IMG/VR virus record: IMGVR_UViG_2802429219_000017
Span: 1-20,241 of that record
Direction: 5' to 3' (one strand)
DNA: 20,241 bases
DNA from: a virus
Taxonomy: Duplodnaviria; Heunggongvirae; Uroviricota; Caudoviricetes
Below are positions 3,707 to 15,744 of this stretch, in pieces. The notes below the pieces were generated by a model that made no database searches, had not been told where the DNA came from, and saw only the letters and a list, made by a program, of their open reading frames with translations. Position 1 is the first letter of the stretch. The number at the start of each line of letters is the position of its first letter. Both the position numbers and the translations under genes were made by a program.

Positions 3707-6700
3707 TTAAGCCAGATGCAGTGCTTCAAGACGACGAAGATCAAAGTCGTTTAATTCGTCGGTATAACTTTCGGTTATCGGTGCTGGCCAATTGTTTGTC
3801 TCCAGGGCTTCGTTTATCTGGCGTAGCGTCCGGCGATATTCCTGTCGACCAAGTTCCAGGAGTTCCTGCGAGGCTTCCACGACAGCCACCCAGTGATAGC
3901 CAGCATCTTTGTTGACGAAGATCCAGAAAAATTTGTCCAGGTTTGCCACATCGCAATACATTGCGGCGCTGAGGTGATAATCACGCTCAATAATTTCACG
4001 GTGCAGGCGATCTTTAAGTCGTTCCTGCCGCACATAACCGAGGCTGACTGACTTCACGTCAGCGCAAATGCTTTCGTATGGCAGCCGGATTTCGATATCA
4101 GGACGGACCCTGATTTCCAGCCCGGTTTCTTCATCAAACCCGAAATAGCTGATTTCAGATTTGCGATCCGGGTGGTTGAGTAGCCTTGCTGCATCGGTAT
4201 TGTTTTGCAGTGCCGCGTGAATATTTTTTGCCTGTTCATACATATCCGGACTGATAAACGTTTTCCCGGCGTTTTCTTCTTGCTGGCGTTTTTGCCAGTC
4301 CTCCAGTGTCACCAGTTCCGGGCGAATTTTCCGTGCGATTTCGGTTAATTGCTCTTTTGTGCCACTGATGTTGTAAGGCAAAGATTTAGCACGTTCTTTT
4401 TTTGCCAGTTCTGGGTCTACAGTTTCAATTTGATCCAGAAGCTGCTCCCGTGCTCCACTGGTTTTCAACAGAGGAGGGAGGCTTGCGTTGTATTCTTTAA
4501 TACAGGCTTTCATTGCTGATGCTGTATGTTTTTCCCCCTCAGGAATACGCCGAAATTCCACCGGAAGCGAACCGTAAAGGATGCCTGTTTCTTCGGCCCC
4601 AGCACTTACAGACAGTGGCTGTATAAGAGTGCTGTTGTAGCTTTCGATCCACTCTTTCATCTGCTCTGGTGTCATCAGTGCTGGCAGACTGGCATTGTGT
4701 TTTTTAATGATGGCGATCAGTTCGTTAGAAGTAGTAACCACATATTCAGGAACCGGTACCGGAATGGCATATTCATCAGCGAATTTATCCGTTTCCAGAA
4801 CATAGCTGTGAATGATCCGCCCACGCAGCAGTGCATCACTTTCCTCGTTCGGAATAGTTCCGGCAATGTGCCGCCCGTGGTAATACATCAGGCTGATACG
4901 GGCATCCTTCAGCATCGTGCTGCTTATTCCGTTGGCGGAGTGATAAACCTCGTTCGGGAGGTTTTCATAGCGGCCTGGCTCGAAATATGACGGCCACATG
5001 ATTTCAGTTGCTACAGGAGCTGACGCTTCACCAGTTTCATCACTGCAATCACGATGCGGATCGCTGCCAGCATTCTCATTGTGCGGATGTTCAGCGCCTT
5101 CCATTTCCACCGGATCTTTTTCCTTAGCTTCAACCTGATTCTCTTCATCGAATGTTTCCTGGTATGTTGCGTCGCCCATTACCGCACCACAGTCAGGGCA
5201 GTTATCCCCGTCAGTCTGACCGCAGGCGGCGCAGACTTTTTCCGGTTCCTGTTGCGCTTCTGGTTCATTTTGTCGCGCATTTTGGCCGTTTTGTTCCGAT
5301 TTTCGGTCGTTCTGTTCCGTTTTTGGCTGATGCTGGTACACAGAATCGCGGGTCTGGATCCCCTTAACCCATTTCGGATCATTCGGGTCGCTAATCCCTT
5401 CAACAAATTCTCCGCGATAGGCAGCCAGTAATTTGTCTGCATCGACAGGATTTTTGGGCGGAATGTTTTTCCGGGCTTCATGGAGTTCTGCCCGCAGTTC
5501 TTGATATTTCGCATCAACAGAATTTACCTGTGACTGAGCATCCAGCGGCTGCGTGTCCTGATGATGTTCAGTTGCGTCCGGTTCCATTGTTTCAGCCTCT
5601 CCCTGTTCATCTGCCGTTGTTCCAGATGGTTGCGGTTTTTCTTCATCATCCTGTTTTCCTTCTTCTGTTACACGCTGCGGCATCGGGGCAGAGGAACGAC
5701 CGCAGGCAATATCCACGATTTCCGGATCAGGGTTGGCATGATCAGTTTCAGTCAGTACTTTGTTCAGATATTCAGTGACGTGCGCGGGGGTGACCTCGAT
5801 CCCAATTGGTGCTTCTTTCACGGACGCAACCACGATGGCGCGGGAATAATCCAGCCCGCCAGGCATGGTGATGAATTTGTCGCGGAAAACAGAAAAGGGC
5901 GGTTTATTTTCAGCGATAATTTCCTCAATGCGTTTAGCGTGTGCCGGATGAAGGTTATAAATGTCCACGTCCATTGAACGGGCCAGTACGCCAGTGGCTA
6001 CGTCGCGCGCCAGCGACGTCAGATCGTGGACGAAACCTTCGCCGCGATCGGTGAGGTTCCCGCCGCCAGCATTAGCACCGGAAGCCATGCGCGTGATGCG
6101 TGAAACACGATTCCCTTTTCGCCATTCTTTTGTCAGAAGACCGCGATCAATGTGTTCGGTATCCAGCCAGGCTGAAATGAAATTCTTAAATTCATAGGGC
6201 TGATGTTTTTTCGTGATAGAGAAAACCCCCTTAATTGCATCAGTCAGGCGGAGCAGGGCGGCATTATCCAGAGTTGTCGGTTCTGCCATGCCGCGTATGG
6301 CCAACAGCAGATTCTGGACATAGCTGTTTTCCTGATCCATCTCAAGAGCAGTAATGTGTTCGCGTTGTTCTCGGGTGGCATGATGCAGGTATTTCCGATC
6401 CCCGGCCGCATAGGTAAAAATGTGCAGAAGACGCTGTGTGAACCGCAAAGTGGCTACAGAGACTTCGCAATCCTGGCAATCCTCGTGGGCGTCTGCCTGC
6501 GTGTTTTCTTCCTGGCCTCCCGCCAGTTCTTTGGTTTCTTGAGCATTATCCTGGTGGTGAACGTCGTCTGGCGCTGCTCCCGGTTTTAGTTCCCAGGTCA
6601 TGGAGTCTTTGCTGAGTTGATAGCGTTCACTCCAGGTAAAATCGATCTCACCTTCAGGGGGCAGGTCATTAACGACAGGAAAATTCGTGGCAACAGCTTT

Positions 6701-6853
6701 AAAATAGCTGCTCAGTTTTTTACCTGACTTAACGATCAGGTAGTCCAGAGTGGCACAGGTCGATTCAAAATCGTCGCTTGCCCACAGGACGACGTCAGGT
6801 TCACCGGATGATTTTTTCGCTTTCCGTAACAGGAAGAGTGGTTTTGTGCTCAT
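3707..6853 (-). CDS. recE: Exodeoxyribonuclease VIII (RecE-like), 1048 aa, with a divergent C-terminal PD-(D/E)XK nuclease domain
   Basis: N-terminal ~590 aa closely match my memory of Rac RecE, including the CxxC...CPDC zinc motif. The C-terminal region has a RecE/YqaJ-like YH..GIS motif and a PD...(D/E)xK core (RPDIEI...ADVKS) but carries a large insertion with three related repeats. Confidence 0.85.
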
Positions 6854-6923
6854 TGTTTTTTAACCTCAACTCAGATTAAAATTACTGCGAGTGATGAATA
6901 AATGTCCCAGGTTCTTCACTCAG

Positions 6924-6952
6924 GCCTGCACGTTGTGCAGGCTTTCTTTTTT
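6924..6952 (+). terminator. Plus-strand rho-independent terminator between recE and racC, antisense to the leftward operon
   Basis: GCCTGCAC-GTT-GTGCAGGC stem-loop (6924-6942) followed by TTTCTTTTTT (6943-6952). On the minus strand the run is A-rich, so it does not terminate the operon. Confidence 0.5.
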
Positions 6953-7227
6953 CAGATTTCACCTTTTAATTTAATTGCAATCAGAGTTGCCAGAAATCCG
7001 GCTTTTTTTTCTACGGGCAGATTCTTTCCGATGTGAACCAGACTCATTTTTGTGACACCTTCATCAAGTGTTTTTACGTTGCCTGATGGGCCGTCAATAT
7101 CAACCACAGTGAATGGGGTTTCTTTATTTTCTGTTTTAATCACGTAGCCAATACGCTTTCCTTCCAGATTAACCTCGTGAACAATGTCATCGGTAGTTAC
7201 AACAGTGACTTCATAATTGGTAATCAT
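6952..7227 (-). CDS. racC: RacC (91 aa)
   Basis: MITNYEVTVVTTDDIVHEVNLEGKRIGYVIKTENKETPFTVVDIDGPSGNVKTL... is near-identical to my memory of Rac RacC. Confidence 0.85.
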   Translation of the reverse strand: MITNYEVTVVTTDDIVHEVNLEGKRIGYVIKTENKETPFTVVDIDGPSGNVKTLDEGVTKMSLVHIGKNLPVEKKAGFLATLIAIKLKGEI

Positions 7228-8989: not shown

Positions 8990-9397
8990 TTATTGATGTT
9001 TGTTACGTTTGCGAGCTTCTAGTAGCTCGGTGAATAGGCGATTAAAATTCTCAACGCGGGCACGGAGTTCGCTGATTTGTGCTTGCTGCTCTGATTTTGG
9101 AAGTGCGCGATACAATCGCAACATCTCCAACTCATCTTCCGATAAGTCTAAGGCGCTGTTGAGTGCAACTGGTGGATCTGGTGTTTTATCCTCGTCACCA
9201 AACAGTATCCAAGTTGGTGAACATTGCAATACCTCAGCCAGGCGATGCAAATTTTGCCCGCGCGGGGCTGTATGGTCGCTTTCCCATAGTGAAATTGATG
9301 AGCCAGATACGCCAGCAGCTTTGCTTAAATCGTTTTGACTTAAACCAACCTGTTTGCGTCTTTCTCTAATTCGTTGACCTAAAGTTTTCTCGTTCAT
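8990..9397 (-). CDS. dicA: Prophage repressor, DicA-type XRE-family HTH protein (135 aa, no peptidase domain)
   Basis: HTH region LGQRIRERRKQVGLSQNDLSKAAGVS... and the ...LQCSPTWILFGDEDK... segment match my memory of Qin DicA, which is also 135 aa. Confidence 0.8.
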   Translation of the reverse strand: MNEKTLGQRIRERRKQVGLSQNDLSKAAGVSGSSISLWESDHTAPRGQNLHRLAEVLQCSPTWILFGDEDKTPDPPVALNSALDLSEDELEMLRLYRALPKSEQQAQISELRARVENFNRLFTELLEARKRNKHQ

Positions 9398-11968: not shown

Positions 11969-12422
11969 GCAGCAAATCCGTCAGGTCTGCCGCCAGTGCA
12001 TGGACCGCTGCCGGGCGGGTGAAACATGGCCTCCGGACCTGGCTGAGTTTGTGGCGCTGATTTCGGAGAGTGGGGCAAATCCATTTGGTCTGACGGTGGA
12101 TGCTGTGATGGAGGAGTACCGCCGCTGGCGCAATGAGTCCTGGCGATACGACGGAAGTGATAAGTACCCGTGGTCTCAGCCCGTGCTGTATCACATTTGC
12201 CTCGAGATGCGTTCAAAGGGGATTGAGCGCCAGATGACCGAAGGGGAGTTAAAACGGCTTGCAGAACGGCAACTGACGAAATGGGCAAAGCATGTTGGTA
12301 ATGGCCTCAGTGTTCCGCCCGTCCGGCGGCAACTGGCAGCACCAAAACGCCCGTCGGGGCCAACACCAATTGAGTTGCTGAAACAGGAATATGAACGCCG
12401 GAAAGCGGCTGGTTTTGTTTGA
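11757..12422 (+). CDS. Lambda P-like replication protein (helicase loader)
   Basis: ...[36 protein letters not shown]...YPW... aligns by eye with the central and C-terminal parts of lambda P. AAGGGGGTGAG SD precedes the ATG at 11757; alternative starts at 11880 and 11961. Confidence 0.65.
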
Positions 12423-12455
12423 GTTTAGAAGTATTTTTACCGGGAGGAAATTTTA

Positions 12456-13211
12456 ATGGAGACCGTTTTTGACGCACTGAAAGCGATGGGAAAGGCCACG
12501 TCGGCAGAACTGGCTGCGCGACTTGATATCAGTCGAGAAGAAGTGCTGAACGAACTATGGGAACTGAAAAAGGCTGGTTTCGTTGATAAAAGCGCGTACA
12601 CCTGGCGTGTGGCTGATAACAACGTTCAGCAGGAACAGCCAGCGCCGGCAGAACTGCCGGAAGAAACCACCACGGCGACAGTAGCGAAAATCTCAGAGTG
12701 CGATTTAACCGCGACGATTGAACAACGCGGACCACAAACGGCGGATGAGCTGGCTACATTGTTTGGTACCACATCACGCAAAGTGGCTTCAACGCTGGCA
12801 ATGGCAATCAGCAAAGGTCGTCTGATTCGCGTAAATCAGGGCGGTAAATTTCGTTACTGCATACCGGGCGATAATTTACCAGCAGAGCCGAAAGCAGCAT
12901 CGGTAGCGGAAACTGATGGTAAGGCCTTTCCTCAGCCCGCAGGTGTTGCGTTACCAGTACAGGAGGCTGCAACACAGGAAGAAATTAAAACAGAAACTGT
13001 GGCGGACATTGTGCAGTCGCTGCCATCGTTTACTGCAACGCGATCTGATGATTTGATTTTGCCATCGCTGCATTTGGCAAACCGCGAACTGCGTCGGGCG
13101 AAAAATCATGTCCGGAAGTGGGAGCGTGTCTGCGCCGCGCTGCGGGAGCTGAATAAATATCGCGATATTGTCGCCCAGCTTTGCCAGGAGGAAACCAGTG
13201 AGCAACATTAA
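12456..13211 (+). CDS. Hypothetical protein with two winged-helix-like domains (251 aa)
   Basis: GGGAGGAAA SD. N-terminal and central segments each look like a winged helix-turn-helix; the C-terminus is basic and helical. Confidence 0.6.
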
Positions 13212-13812
13212 TTACCAGGCACTGCGAATGGCGGCAGAAAATGCAACCCCTGGCGAATGGTGTTCTGATGATTATGGGTTAATTGCTGATGCCGGACTGA
13301 ACGCAAATTACTACATAGCATCATGCTCAGGACCAGATAATCGCGCCAATAAGCGATTCATAGCAGCAGCCAATCCGGCTACCGTGCTGGCACTGCTGGA
13401 TGAACGGGAAGCCCAAAGCAAACGCATTGCAGAGCTGGAGACTAATCTTGCTGCACTTGCGGCGGAGAATGCGGGGCTGAAGGTGATGTGTGAGGACCGC
13501 CGCAGGTTCATCATGAAAGGGGTGCAACTGGGGTATATCAAGGTGCCAAAAGCGGAAACAGATCCGGACCTTGAGACAATTCGTATTGCTATATCACCAC
13601 AAAAGCCCATTCCAGCCACCGATGCTTTTTTGGCTGAAGTAAGGGCGCAGGGGGTAGAGATGATGCGCGAACACCCATCAATCAAACTTTGCTCTTTGAC
13701 GCACATATGTGATGAGTTAGCCGCCCAGCTTCGAAAAGGAGAGCTGCATATGATGTTTGACGCTGGCATTCACATCAAAGGAGAAGAGCATGGAAATAAA
13801 ACCAGAAGATGA
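13198..13812 (+). CDS. Ead/Ea22-like protein (N-terminal Ea22-like domain, variable C-terminus)
   Basis: AGGAGG SD 6 nt before GTG at 13198. ...[47 protein letters not shown]... resembles the Ea22-like N-terminal domain of lambdoid prophage proteins. Confidence 0.55.
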
Positions 13813-14149
13813 GTTAAGTAATATTGTTTTATTTCCGGTAAAAGAGGATGACCCACGTAATCAGGTTAATTTTCTTTATGAACCATCGGAAAGACCATAT
13901 TGCCATCATGCCTCTGTCCGGGTTGATGAAAAAGAGCGTCAGGTCCGCTGTAAAATCTGCGGTGCAGTTGTGGAGCCATTTGACTGGATGCTCTCTGTTG
14001 CGAAAAGAGAAACCAGGCTGGCAGATGATGTAAAACTATTGCGCCAGGAGGAACAGGAAAGGCGAAAAAATATAGAAAAGCTAATTCAGATTGAGCGTAA
14101 CGCGAAAGCGCGGATACGCAGAGCGACAAAATCCAGAACTGAATATTAA
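13790..14149 (+). CDS. Hypothetical zinc-ribbon plus coiled-coil protein (119 aa)
   Basis: AAAGGAGAAG SD. CHH...CKICG motif followed by a basic/acidic coiled-coil tail. Confidence 0.55.
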   Translation: MEIKPEDELSNIVLFPVKEDDPRNQVNFLYEPSERPYCHHASVRVDEKERQVRCKICGAVVEPFDWMLSVAKRETRLADDVKLLRQEEQERRKNIEKLIQIERNAKARIRRATKSRTEY

Positions 14150-14194
14150 ATCAGCACTGTAAATAAAATTTAATCCTTAACCGGAGGTATATCT

Positions 14195-14407
14195 ATGTTA
14201 AATACACAGAAAACCATTAACGCGGAAAAATATAACGAGTGGGTAAAAAAATTCTCTGAGCAGATTTTTAAAATTACTGCTGACGAGAATGTAGCAAAAA
14301 ATGAATTAGAGCCGTGGACACCTGAAGGAACCGACCCAAATTATTGCTGGTGGGAGGTTGATCCGGTTGATGCTGCAAATGAAGCCATGAGTTACCACAA
14401 CGATTAA
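14195..14407 (+). CDS. Hypothetical small protein (70 aa)
   Basis: GGAGGT SD 5 nt upstream; acidic, Trp-rich C-terminus. Confidence 0.5.
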   Translation: MLNTQKTINAEKYNEWVKKFSEQIFKITADENVAKNELEPWTPEGTDPNYCWWEVDPVDAANEAMSYHND

Positions 14408-14719
14408 TGTCGGGATGCCGCCCGAAAGGGCGGTAATAAAAATGGCTGAACTAATCGGAGAACAAAACGATGAAAAACCGTAAGGCAAAGATGCTGATAG
14501 CAAAGCCCGGGCAGCGTATCCGTATCTCAAATCGGCTTGTTATTTACTATAGATATCTGGGTTTTAGGGGGTGTTCCTCTATTCGTTTTTACGGTGTCTG
14601 GCGGAGCAGAAGCGCGGCGCAAAACCGCTGGAAAAACCACTTGCGCACTAAAGGAGAGTGAGGTGCCTACACTATTCAGGAAGCTACACAATAAAATTAA
14701 CCCACATAAGGAAACAGAT

Positions 14720-15298
14720 ATGGCAACTATTACCAGAGAAAGCGCAGAGATTAAATCATTCATCACTGGCTTTCTGAGCGATGCGGCGCACGATAACCAA
14801 TCTTCAAACAGTCTGCTTGCTAATGTGTTTCGTATCGCGCTGGCATCGCTGGAAGCAAAACCAATAGGTGCATTCCACATTGCAGAACAGCAAGTTGACG
14901 GTACAAGTGACTACCTCAAGGATGGAGAATGGCCTATTGATAATGGAATTATTGAGGTCTACGCCGCTCCCCCCGTTCCCGTAATACAGGCTGATGTCGC
15001 GCAAGCAATTGAAAATCTCAAGCAGAAGTTAGTGGAATGCAATCGCTATAACTACTGCGCAGATGCAGTTAAAGGTGTTGAGGATGCCTGCCGCGCAGCC
15101 ATGCTTCAGGGGAAAGACGATGGTATCCTCACCAATGAGGATACCAAAGGGGACGTTCAGGTACGGGAATTAACAATGCTGATTAAACAACTGGTTAGCC
15201 AATTGAGGAAAGCGAAGCCGGACTGCAAATTACCGGAGAAGGCGATGGTCTACCTGAAGCGAAACGGACTGATAAGTGCAGAGGATGTTTTGCGATGA
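14720..15298 (+). CDS. Hypothetical protein (192 aa)
   Basis: AAGGAAA SD before the ATG at 14720; the track ORF extends to 14537 but that N-terminal part looks non-coding. Soluble, acidic. Confidence 0.6.
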   Translation: MATITRESAEIKSFITGFLSDAAHDNQSSNSLLANVFRIALASLEAKPIGAFHIAEQQVDGTSDYLKDGEWPIDNGIIEVYAAPPVPVIQADVAQAIENLKQKLVECNRYNYCADAVKGVEDACRAAMLQGKDDGILTNEDTKGDVQVRELTMLIKQLVSQLRKAKPDCKLPEKAMVYLKRNGLISAEDVLR

Positions 15299-15378: not shown

Positions 15379-15588
15379 AAACGATTTGCGGGAAAAGGAT
15401 AGTTAAGTAGAATTGCTGCGGGTGCTTGAGGCTATCTGTCTCAGGCATGAACACCAAAGGCAGATAGAGAAAAGCCCCAGTTAACATTACGCGTCCTGCA
15501 AGACGCTTAACATTAATCTGAGGCCAATTTCATGCTAGACACATGTAGGTTAGCCTCTTACGCGCCGAAAGGCAAGGAGAAGCAGGCT

Positions 15589-15744
15589 ATGAAGCAGCAA
15601 AAGGCGATGTTAATCGCCCTGATCGTCATCTGTTTAACCGTCATAGTGACGGCACTGGTAACGAGGAAAGACCTCTGCGAGGTACGAATCCGAACCGGGC
15701 AGACGGAGGTCGCTGTCTTCACAGCTTACGAACCTGAGGAGTAA
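15589..15744 (+). CDS. hok: Hok/Gef-family type I toxin (HokD/RelF-like, 51 aa)
   Basis: MKQQKAMLIALIVICLTVIVTALVTRKDLCEVRIRTGQTEVAVFTAYEPEE matches my memory of the Hok family. AAGGAGAAG SD. An in-frame upstream ATG at 15532 gives a mok-like leader. Confidence 0.85.
   Translation: MKQQKAMLIALIVICLTVIVTALVTRKDLCEVRIRTGQTEVAVFTAYEPEE

Follow-up and report, generated by a model that had tools for sequence, protein, structure and literature searches.

Oad2 (gp27) of phage HK446 directly inhibits the P2 OLD defence nuclease by binding the OLD tetramer and holding it inactive, and an HK75 homologue with 54% identity fails to inhibit OLD (10.64898/2026.07.10.737580). The paper describing Oad2 itself notes EaE-EaD/Ea22 fusions (10.64898/2026.07.10.737580), and Ea22 proteins consist of an N-domain, a coiled coil and a variable C-terminal domain (PMC10834534, PMC7093339). 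A second link to counter-defence comes from the Rac prophage of E. coli K-12, whose truncated ydaW is listed among screen hits as a blocker of the retron-Sen2 toxin RcaT (10.1101/2020.06.22.160242). The effect could be an indirect one, since YdaW as a DNA-binding protein was overexpressed.

Here, we examine a block of four genes in which relatives of both proteins stand side by side, in a window of 20,241 nucleotides (the whole stretch of DNA that was analysed) whose source is contig PTSA01000027.1 of Escherichia sp. MOD1-EC6163. The locus is a Rac-like (lambdoid) prophage, and the block lies in its rightward early operon, after the replication genes and ahead of the hok/nin/Q region. Two of the four genes have relatives tied to blocking anti-phage defence, one by biochemistry (Oad2) and one by a screen only (ydaW). 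We lean, by a modest margin over even, towards reading the block as a mosaic array of non-essential accessory cassettes that interact with the host or its defences and are shuffled at conserved boundary sequences. Its main features are as follows:

12456 to 13211, plus strand: gene 1, an intact ydaW (DUF1627 family), 251 aa (PF07789, E 1.5e-94; phrog_630, E 1e-126)
13198 to 13812, plus strand: gene 2, an Ead/Ea22::EaE(Oad2-like) chimera, 204 aa, GTG start
13761 to 13789, plus strand: conserved cassette boundary GCTGGCATTCACATCAAAGGAGAAGAGC, which includes the gene 3 Shine-Dalgarno site and reads ...AGIHIKGEE... in the gene 2 frame
13790 to 14149, plus strand: gene 3, 119 aa (phrog_1621, E 1e-56)
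14195 to 14407, plus strand: gene 4, an acidic protein of 70 aa (phrog_4659, E 1.7e-50 over 70 of 70 positions)
14416 to 14435, plus strand: a stable GC-rich hairpin that lacks a U-tract, just 3' of gene 4 (RNA fold −19.3 kcal/mol, z −3.3)

An earlier note on this DNA had described four closely packed genes that follow the replication genes and have good Shine-Dalgarno sites; the coordinates, the ribosome-binding sites and the DnaT-domain initiator and lambda-P-like genes directly 5' of the block all agree with that description. The four genes share one orientation and are closely spaced between 12456 and 14407; upstream lie the repressor, Cro, YdaT and replication genes, and downstream hok/sok, DUF1367, YbcO and DUF1133. 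NCBI gene calls on the contig, made independently, give products of 251, 204, 119 and 70 aa that match the four open reading frames. All four are real protein-coding genes and not chance reading frames, since each is under purifying selection (dN/dS against diverged alleles well below 1) and each matches a PHROG family at E ≤ 1e-33. Because they are packed or overlapping, they are probably co-transcribed and translationally coupled. Promoter and terminator scans of the region gave nothing above chance, the hairpin at 14416 to 14435 was left uncalled by the terminator scan, and an Rfam search placed no RNA family within 12456 to 14407.

The same note had called the genes unrecognised, which does not hold: each falls in an established family (Pfam DUF1627, Pfam Ead_Ea22, phrog_1621 and phrog_4659, respectively), and RefSeq contains proteins identical to all four products. 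None of the four proteins matches a core phage function, whereas the note would have been refuted by matches of all four to such functions. PADLOC and NCBIfam searches of the block proteins returned nothing specific.

Gene 1, preceded by the Shine-Dalgarno site GGGAGG (12442 to 12447, 8 nt ahead of its ATG), scores 314.4 bits against PF07789 (DUF1627; gathering cut-off 28.1), with residues 88 to 241 covering the full model. It comprises a first wHTH (aa 1–50), a second (about aa 85–137), a variable acidic linker (aa 138–199) and a conserved basic C-terminal helix (about aa 205–236). In the conservation map, drawn from alignment A7, the N-terminal winged helix is nearly invariant. The description of this product as a tandem winged-helix protein is borne out by matches in both halves: to Pfam HTH_20 at the N-terminus (28.5 bits against a cut-off of 27, aa 4–44, alongside many weaker wHTH families, the matches together spanning aa 4–46), to FeoC-like and archaeal wHTH families over aa 80–137, and, in a PDB profile search, to the archaeal wHTH regulator 2d1h over aa 80–131. 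The gene evolves under constraint (dN/dS 0.13–0.35 against diverged alleles).

Like gene 1, ydaW of the K-12 Rac prophage directly follows the replication genes, and the two proteins are 97% identical over aa 1–151. K-12 YdaW ends after the second winged helix because of the Rac deletion, whereas gene 1 is full length and keeps the linker and the conserved C-terminal helix. The loci also differ in what comes next: the usual successor of ydaW is a DUF977/LygF (Ren-like) gene, and here it is an Ea22-like gene.

That gene, gene 2, overlaps gene 1 by 14 nt and starts at the GTG at 13198 and not at the later ATG at 13228; its Shine-Dalgarno site AGGAGG (13186 to 13191) has a 6-nt spacer. P0241 is 100% identical to this 204-aa form, and NCBI names an identical protein 'ead/Ea22-like family protein'. 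The product divides into three parts:

13198 to 13404, plus strand: Ead/Ea22 N-domain, aa 1–69 (PF13935)
13405 to 13743, plus strand: coiled coil and EaE/Oad2 core, aa 70–182 (mosaic alignment A2, PHROG, hhalign)
13744 to 13809, plus strand: scar-like tail predicted to be disordered, aa 183–204 (AF2 pLDDT ~30)

The gene had been described as Ea22-like with a novel C-terminus. The first half of that description stands, as the protein scores 50.8 bits against PF13935 (Ead_Ea22; gathering cut-off 27), while the second does not, because aa 70–182 form a standard EaE/Oad2 core. An hhalign comparison of aa 70–182 with the EaE/Oad2 alignment A8 gave a probability of 99.1% (E 1.4e-18), the C-terminal 109 aa match phrog_492 (E 2.6e-23) and phrog_614 (E 1.9e-12), and BLASTP against Oad2 returned E 1e-6. 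The core is shared with Oad2 (HK446 gp27), P22 EaE and HK97 gp37 (phrog_614/492), and in HK639, too, the place after the replication genes is occupied by an eae-like gene. All three invariant motifs of the EaE/Oad2 family (LAAENAGx[15 protein letters not shown], LRKG) are present, the last as QLRKG, and two hypervariable inserts lie between the invariant motifs LAAENAGx[14 protein letters not shown] and QLRKG. Selection on the gene is purifying (dN/dS 0.41–0.46 against diverged alleles).

Gene 2 departs from the family at both ends. In place of the EaE-type N-terminus (MKQMSLIEMDGFLKGK...; MKQMSLIEMDGFLKGKC..., phrog_583) it has the Ead/Ea22 N-domain, and it gives no match to phrog_583. At the other end the usual ...GGNQ terminus gives way to a 23-aa tail; the last 22–23 residues are the only deviating part of the C-terminal region, are predicted to be disordered and look like a recombination scar. 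As in Ea22 of lambda and Stx phages, the N-terminal domain is followed by a coiled coil and then by a swappable C-terminal part. In the AF2 model, which is of low confidence overall (pLDDT 63), a helix spans aa 60–111, with pLDDT 81–92 over aa 61–100, giving a long coiled-coil helix after the N-domain. The C-terminal part differs in fold from the lambda Ea22 C-terminal domain as far as this low-confidence model goes: a phmmer comparison with PDB 8dsx gave E 0.92, and Foldseek of the model against the PDB gave no match, so that an assignment to the lambda-type domain was rejected as unsupported.

The biochemical activity of Oad2 cannot be carried over to gene 2. Identity between the two proteins is ~32–35% over the shared core and their variable inserts differ; since the HK75 homologue is inactive at 54% identity, transfer of the anti-OLD activity appears unlikely.

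Gene 3 overlaps gene 2 by 23 nt and is preceded by the Shine-Dalgarno site AAAGGAGAA (13777 to 13785). Its product has the following layout:

Gene 3, aa 1–35, plus strand: disordered N-terminus with a conserved ELSNxVxFP motif
13895 to 13975, plus strand: zinc ribbon, C38-x-H40...C54-x2-C57, aa 36–62
13976 to 14143, plus strand: long basic helix, aa 63–118, with the near-invariant LRxEExxRRxNIEKLIQIERNAKARIRR

An earlier assignment of this product as a zinc-ribbon/coiled-coil protein agrees with the ligands C38, H40, C54 and C57, which show little or no variation in sets of 47 and 66 sequences (among them alignment A1), and with the AF2 model (overall pLDDT 72.7), in which the long helix 63–118 reaches pLDDT 84–96 and the beta-hairpins of the ribbon are visible. 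The best Foldseek match is the TFIIB zinc ribbon 1pft (probability 0.96, 27 aa, rmsd 1.8 Å), and the score against PF08271 (TFIIB zinc ribbon) is 21.5 bits, below the gathering cut-off of 29. TFIIB- and ribosomal S27e-type zinc ribbons thus share a local fold and a weak sequence likeness with gene 3, but in gene 3 one ligand is His and not Cys, and its single long basic helix has no counterpart in them. Fold searches against the PDB and BFVD returned generic zinc-ribbon matches only, and sequence and profile searches found no informative homologue.

The family is large (1,622 representatives at E ≤ 1e-3 in a profile search), has no Pfam model and is strongly constrained, with a dN/dS of ~0.02 for gene 3 against diverged alleles. 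Gene 3 shares 99% identity with ArgO145 gp17 and 26–33% with 933W L0139 and Enterobacter phage Tyrion gp50 (phrog_1621/8538/4865). These three share the zinc-ribbon and helix layout and often lie just 3' of an Ea22-like gene; in Stx phages the relatives sit in the leftward arm, and none of the three is characterised. A literature search on L0139 and lygF found nothing useful. Lambda Ea8.5 is a zinc-binding protein encoded beside ea22; PDB sequence searches with the single protein and with the profile gave no match to the solved Ea8.5 homologues, and we rejected a relationship of gene 3 to Ea8.5.

Gene 4 follows after a 45-nt gap, with the Shine-Dalgarno site GGAGG (14183 to 14187), and encodes a protein with a pI of 4.4 and four Trp residues that has no match in Pfam, NCBIfam, PADLOC or the PDB. 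It is of narrow range, occurring in only eight phage records and always directly 3' of gene 3, which it follows in 34 of 104 loci (dN/dS 0.10–0.31 against diverged alleles).

Comparison across genomes indicates how such a block is put together. Of 5,426 complete E. coli genomes, 3,600 (about two thirds) contain parts of it, and yet 80% or more of the block is not found in any single phage or complete E. coli genome record. The 3' end of gene 2 together with genes 3 and 4 is 99–100% identical in a P1-like phage and a plasmid and ~93% identical in the leftward arm of Stx phages. The neighbours of gene 3 vary between loci, but the same boundary of ~28 nt stands 5' of it in 84 of 89 close loci regardless of the upstream gene, and close relatives nearly always keep either the 3' end of an Ea22-type gene or a vestigial mini-ORF. 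An obligate pair of Ea22 and gene 3, to which 933W, ArgO145, Tyrion, the P1-like phage and rare in-frame fusions had pointed, was rejected as a strict rule, as the upstream gene is DUF977 in 42 of 108 loci, Ead_Ea22 in 25, NinG in six, YbcO in four and RusA in two.

The four products would act early after induction or infection, and we infer that they do so by binding host or defence macromolecules and not by catalysis. Gene 2 may form a coiled-coil oligomer whose variable inserts bind a host defence or recombination-surveillance protein and hold it inactive, an action that can be likened to that of Oad2 on the OLD tetramer, with a target that is probably different here. YdaW may bind DNA or a DNA-containing partner, and the screen with the truncated K-12 copy suggests a blunting of the retron toxin. 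The helix of gene 3 would serve to bind either nucleic acid or a host protein that is conserved, and gene 4 is possibly a small acidic inhibitor. The cassettes themselves would be traded between phages by recombination at short conserved boundaries that include the Shine-Dalgarno site of the next gene.

The earlier suggestion of possible anti-defence roles thus has some support in the literature, from the K-12 ydaW screen against RcaT and from the EaE/Oad2-type core of gene 2, and the roles themselves we infer. A more specific proposal makes the block a small counter-defence island, with two or more of its four products dedicated to inhibiting bacterial immunity. YdaW would act against retron-type toxins; through its hypervariable inserts, the Ea22::EaE chimera would keep a defence nuclease of the OLD family, or another of the ABC-ATPase/TOPRIM kind, locked in its inactive oligomer; and the zinc-ribbon/basic-helix family would represent a new class of phage inhibitors whose host target is highly conserved. 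We regard this full version as unlikely.

The genes could instead regulate the development of the phage itself, with YdaW acting on prophage promoters, the Ea22-like protein biasing the choice between lysis and lysogeny, and the zinc-ribbon protein serving as a regulator that binds DNA or RNA polymerase. Ea22 of lambda and Stx phages favours lysogeny (PMC7093339, PMC10834534) and has been linked to the lysis-lysogeny decision and not to defence, YdaW is counted among the E. coli transcription factors of unknown function (PMC9308461) and has MarR/ArsR-like wHTH matches in Pfam, and the ribbon of gene 3 is similar to the one with which TFIIB contacts RNA polymerase. But gene 2 lacks the lambda-type Ea22 C-terminal domain by both phmmer and Foldseek, and it lies in the rightward early operon, whereas Ea22 of lambda and Stx phages is found in the exo-xis region. 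Prophages that are otherwise alike moreover swap the cassettes freely or lack them, an unusual pattern for core regulators, and we consider this explanation rather unlikely. A role as nin-type accessories to replication or recombination, with YdaW a Ren-like or replication-associated DNA-binding protein coupled to the replication module and gene 3 a nin-region DNA-binding protein that aids recombination or replication restart, would fit the position of YdaW, which in all annotated examples examined comes directly 3' of a replication module (three different kinds in all), and the distant gene 3 relatives that sit between NinG, RusA or YbcO and the antiterminator Q. YdaW and Ren are both MarR-like winged-helix proteins at the same map position, and the YdaW N-terminus weakly matches the Ren-like phrog_142 (E 9e-5, no single stretch passing alone). 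However, hhalign against lambda Ren was not significant (probability 0.2%), so that homology to Ren is doubtful, and the constancy of the YdaW position whichever replication module precedes it argues against a specific partnership. The only ydaW of K-12 Rac is truncated, and neither NinH, NinB nor any other known nin protein resembles gene 3; a nin-type role is in our judgement improbable.

Decay is the remaining explanation, in which some or all of the reading frames are remnants without a current function. Recombination scars are abundant, among them the 22–23-aa tail of the gene 2 product and, in related loci, vestigial Ea22 mini-ORFs; truncated and fused variants are common in databases, and the K-12 ydaW is itself truncated. 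Against this, selection is purifying on all four genes and strongest in gene 3, intact copies are present on hundreds to thousands of contigs, and the Shine-Dalgarno sites and reading frames are intact, making decay very improbable. We therefore retain, with the modest preference stated above, the mosaic array of accessory cassettes.

The region is ordinary in that lambdoid early operons as a rule contain such mosaic blocks of small accessory genes, and it is still a reasonable place to search for anti-defence functions. The gene 3 family is a sensible first target for functional study because it is large, strongly constrained and entirely uncharacterised. If the leads hold, a very common region of E. 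coli prophages would supply candidate anti-retron and anti-OLD-like inhibitors, and the gene 2 family would show how inhibitors diversify, with scaffold motifs kept while N-domains and variable inserts are swapped.

The window corresponds to the early region of a lambdoid prophage of the Rac-like type. A CI-type repressor gene faces a rightward operon, which includes P22-Cro-like, YdaT-like and lambda-P-like genes along with a replication initiator that has a DnaT domain; the presence of RalA, sok/hok and nin-type genes (DUF1367, YbcO, DUF1133) confirms the element type. The four genes under study (genes 1–4, together the block) lie directly 3' of the replication genes.

Features of the early region
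8990-9397, minus strand, CI-type repressor
12456-13211, plus strand, gene 1, 251 aa
13198-13812, plus strand, gene 2, 204 aa
13761-13789, conserved boundary containing the gene 3 Shine-Dalgarno site
13790-14149, plus strand, gene 3, 119 aa
14195-14407, plus strand, gene 4, 70 aa

The overlap is 14 nt between genes 1 and 2 and 23 nt between genes 2 and 3, whereas genes 3 and 4 are separated by 45 nt. Every gene is preceded by a good Shine-Dalgarno site, and gene 2 has a GTG start six bases after AGGAGG. An exact protein match identified the source contig as PTSA01000027.1 (Escherichia sp. MOD1-EC6163), on which independent gene calls are identical for all four. Coordinates, ribosome-binding sites and gene calls bear out the packed array that an earlier note had described. 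Comparison with diverged alleles gave dN/dS values of 0.13–0.35 for gene 1, 0.41–0.46 for gene 2, ~0.02 for gene 3 and 0.10–0.31 for gene 4, indicating that all are real genes under selection.

At the left end of the window, the SraC/RyeA and SdsR/RyeB sRNA pair (463-607 and 2169-2347) indicates that the prophage adjoins that chromosomal locus; the RalA antitoxin sRNA (214 bits) lies further inside, as in Rac. On the minus strand at 3707-7227, a 1,048-aa ORF and an adjoining 91-aa ORF occupy the recE/racC position of related prophages and are candidates for these genes, with kilR and ydaE adjoining them in the contig's gene calls. Downstream of the block, the interval 15420-15744 holds a hok-family toxin gene and a sok antisense RNA, at the position that hokD has in related E. 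coli prophages and hokW in 933W. A weak hairpin that resembles a terminator and has a tail rich in T (12397-12413) lies at the extreme end of the lambda-P-like gene, immediately 5' of gene 1, in a region where such sites are no more numerous than in shuffled sequence. Directly 3' of gene 4 is a stable GC-rich hairpin (14416-14435; -19.3 kcal/mol, z -3.3). The sequence behind it is rich in A, not in U, and the hairpin qualifies as a canonical intrinsic terminator on neither strand.

Gene 1 matches Pfam DUF1627 (314 bits) and shares 97% identity with YdaW of the K-12 Rac prophage across residues 1–151, after which the K-12 protein is cut off by the Rac deletion while gene 1 continues to residue 251. 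Comparing homologues down to 47% identity, we observed three conserved modules with variable, acidic linkers between them: a nearly invariant winged helix-turn-helix (wHTH1, aa 1–50, with the winged helix matched by Pfam HTH_20 and others at aa 4–46), a second one (wHTH2, ~aa 85–137) that aligned with an archaeal wHTH regulator in a PDB profile search, and a conserved basic helix at the C-terminus. The tandem winged-helix assignment made earlier was therefore correct. In all annotated examples examined, this family comes immediately behind the replication module, of which three types were represented. The usual next gene, DUF977/LygF ("Ren-like" in PHROG-based annotation), is absent from the window, and a direct comparison of gene 1 itself with lambda Ren was not significant.

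YdaW appears in a list of E. coli transcription factors whose function is unknown (PMC9308461), and the only functional data that we found in the literature for the family come from an overexpression screen in which truncated K-12 ydaW was among the prophage "blockers" of the retron-Sen2 toxin RcaT (10.1101/2020.06.22.160242). That report lists ydaW without giving a mechanism or naming any gene-specific validation, and RacC is the strongest blocker in the screen.

The N-terminal 69 residues of gene 2 form an Ead/Ea22 domain (PF13935, 50.8 bits), in agreement with its description as Ea22-like, followed by a long predicted helix (AF2 residues 60–111, pLDDT 81–92 over aa 61–100, in a model whose overall mean is only 63). 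The C-terminus, by contrast, is not novel as had been claimed. Residues 70–182 are an EaE/Oad2-type core carrying motifs (LAAENAGx... and QLRKG) common to P22 EaE, HK97 gp37 and HK446 gp27, and the alignment of homologues is strongly mosaic. Alone, the C-terminal 109 residues match phrog_492 (E 2.6e-23) and phrog_614 (E 1.9e-12), the latter being the best family for HK446 gp27 and EaE, and hhalign against five aligned EaE-type proteins returned a probability of 99.1% (E 1.4e-18). The lambda Ea22 C-terminal domain showed no resemblance.

HK446 gp27 is Oad2, which binds the P2 OLD tetramer and prevents activation of this defence nuclease, and some EaE relatives occur as fusions with EaD/Ea22 proteins (2026 preprint, 10.64898/2026.07.10.737580); gene 2 is a fusion of this type. 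An HK75 homologue with 54% identity does not inhibit OLD (10.64898/2026.07.10.737580), indicating that specificity is narrow, and gene 2 is only ~32–35% identical to Oad2. How Oad2 acts, as an oligomeric scaffold whose variable inserts bind the target, can be carried over to gene 2, but the target itself cannot. Only the last 22–23 residues depart from the usual ...GGNQ ending; this tail is predicted to be disordered and, since the conserved gene 3 leader encodes it, we read it as a recombination scar.

A ~28-nt sequence, GCTGGCATTCGCATCAAAGGAGAGGAGC, lies directly 5' of the gene 3 ATG in 84 of 89 close loci regardless of the upstream gene (loci L009–L093, around the start of gene 3). In these close loci an ORF in another frame runs over the gene 3 start and stops 23 nt inside the gene, its tail ending in R or G. 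This ORF is a mini-ORF of <40 codons in 35 loci, 30 of which start with the Ea22-type N-terminus VSEISYQA, identifying a gutted, vestigial Ea22 gene. We infer that the "K/RGE" motif described at the C-terminal end of Ea22 proteins (PMC7093339) is nothing more than the following gene's Shine-Dalgarno site in translation (AAA GGA GAR). Such conserved boundaries explain the cassette shuffling. Further downstream, at 14470-14719, a 63-aa ORF (phrog_1380) has the ending ...NHLRTKGE*, which falls on a second site resembling a boundary (14644-14658); the 58 nt that come next read ...LFRKLHNKINPHKETD, resemble the C-terminal end of DUF4014 proteins, and look like a further recombination scar before a 192-aa ORF (14720-15298, phrog_660).

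Gene 3 belongs to a family of 149 clusters across Enterobacterales by word-indexed search and 1,622 representatives at E <= 1e-3 by profile search, with no Pfam family of its own among 66 members scanned. Invariant C38, H40, C54 and C57 uphold the proposed zinc ribbon, and AF2 predicts a long helix behind it (63–118, pLDDT 84–96); the model (pLDDT 72.7) also has a disordered N-terminus and a small beta-hairpin ribbon. The nearly invariant C-terminal helix LRxEExxRRxNIEKLIQIERNAKARIRR is more conserved than the ribbon, and the sole matches in fold and profile searches were coiled coils and zinc ribbons of a generic kind (TFIIB 1pft, eS27). An obligate Ea22-gene 3 pairing, first suspected, was ruled out by the varied upstream genes at 108 loci (DUF977, Ea22-like, NinG, YbcO, RusA and others). 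In distant genomes a relative lies directly 5' of antiterminator Q, and this position and the varied neighbours identify gene 3 as an independent nin-type cassette. Rare in-frame fusions (proteins P0123, P0126 and P0162, from E. marmotae and others) join an Ead/Ea22 N-domain and coiled coil to the second or third residue of gene 3, which shows that the DNA from the conserved RIAELE segment to the start of gene 3 can be lost by deletion.

Gene 4 encodes an acidic protein of 70 residues (pI 4.4) that belongs to phrog_4659, which is present in eight phage records only, each time directly 3' of gene 3. Elsewhere this slot is filled by DUF7167 (small, very acidic), DUF4014 or DUF551; gene 4 had no match in the libraries or PDB searched.

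Parts of the block are present in 3,600 of 5,426 E. coli genomes, and none of the phage records or complete E. coli genomes searched covers >=80% of its 2 kb. Gene 1 has counterparts of 89–95% identity in Rac-like and PPompW prophages. The final 200 nt of gene 2 with genes 3 and 4 are 99–100% identical in a P1-like phage (MH160767.1 79596-80437, locus L002) and a 72-kb plasmid (NZ_CP027223.1 60161-60778), showing that the cassette moves between lambdoid prophages and phage-plasmids, and ~93% identical in Stx2a phages such as ArgO145, where they lie on the leftward arm. GC content is 0.52 and 0.50 in genes 1 and 2 (0.48–0.57 with the flanking genes) and 0.42 and 0.39 in genes 3 and 4 (13790-14407), which fits a separate cassette origin.

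The earlier note had regarded the four genes as unrecognised accessory genes with possible host-takeover or anti-defence functions. Unrecognised they are not: they match DUF1627, PF13935 and PHROG families, and RefSeq already contains the exact proteins (gene 1 as WP_105269208.1; genes 3 and 4 each on at least 1,000 contigs). Their accessory character stands, two have counter-defence-linked relatives, and their role is unproven. Decaying remnants would be a highly improbable reading, essentially excluded by the selection acting on all four genes. Roles in replication or recombination seem unlikely, and developmental regulation is a possible, if doubtful, alternative. We lean, with modest conviction, towards a mosaic array of accessory cassettes that interact with host or defence components. 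The block itself is a new combination of known modules.
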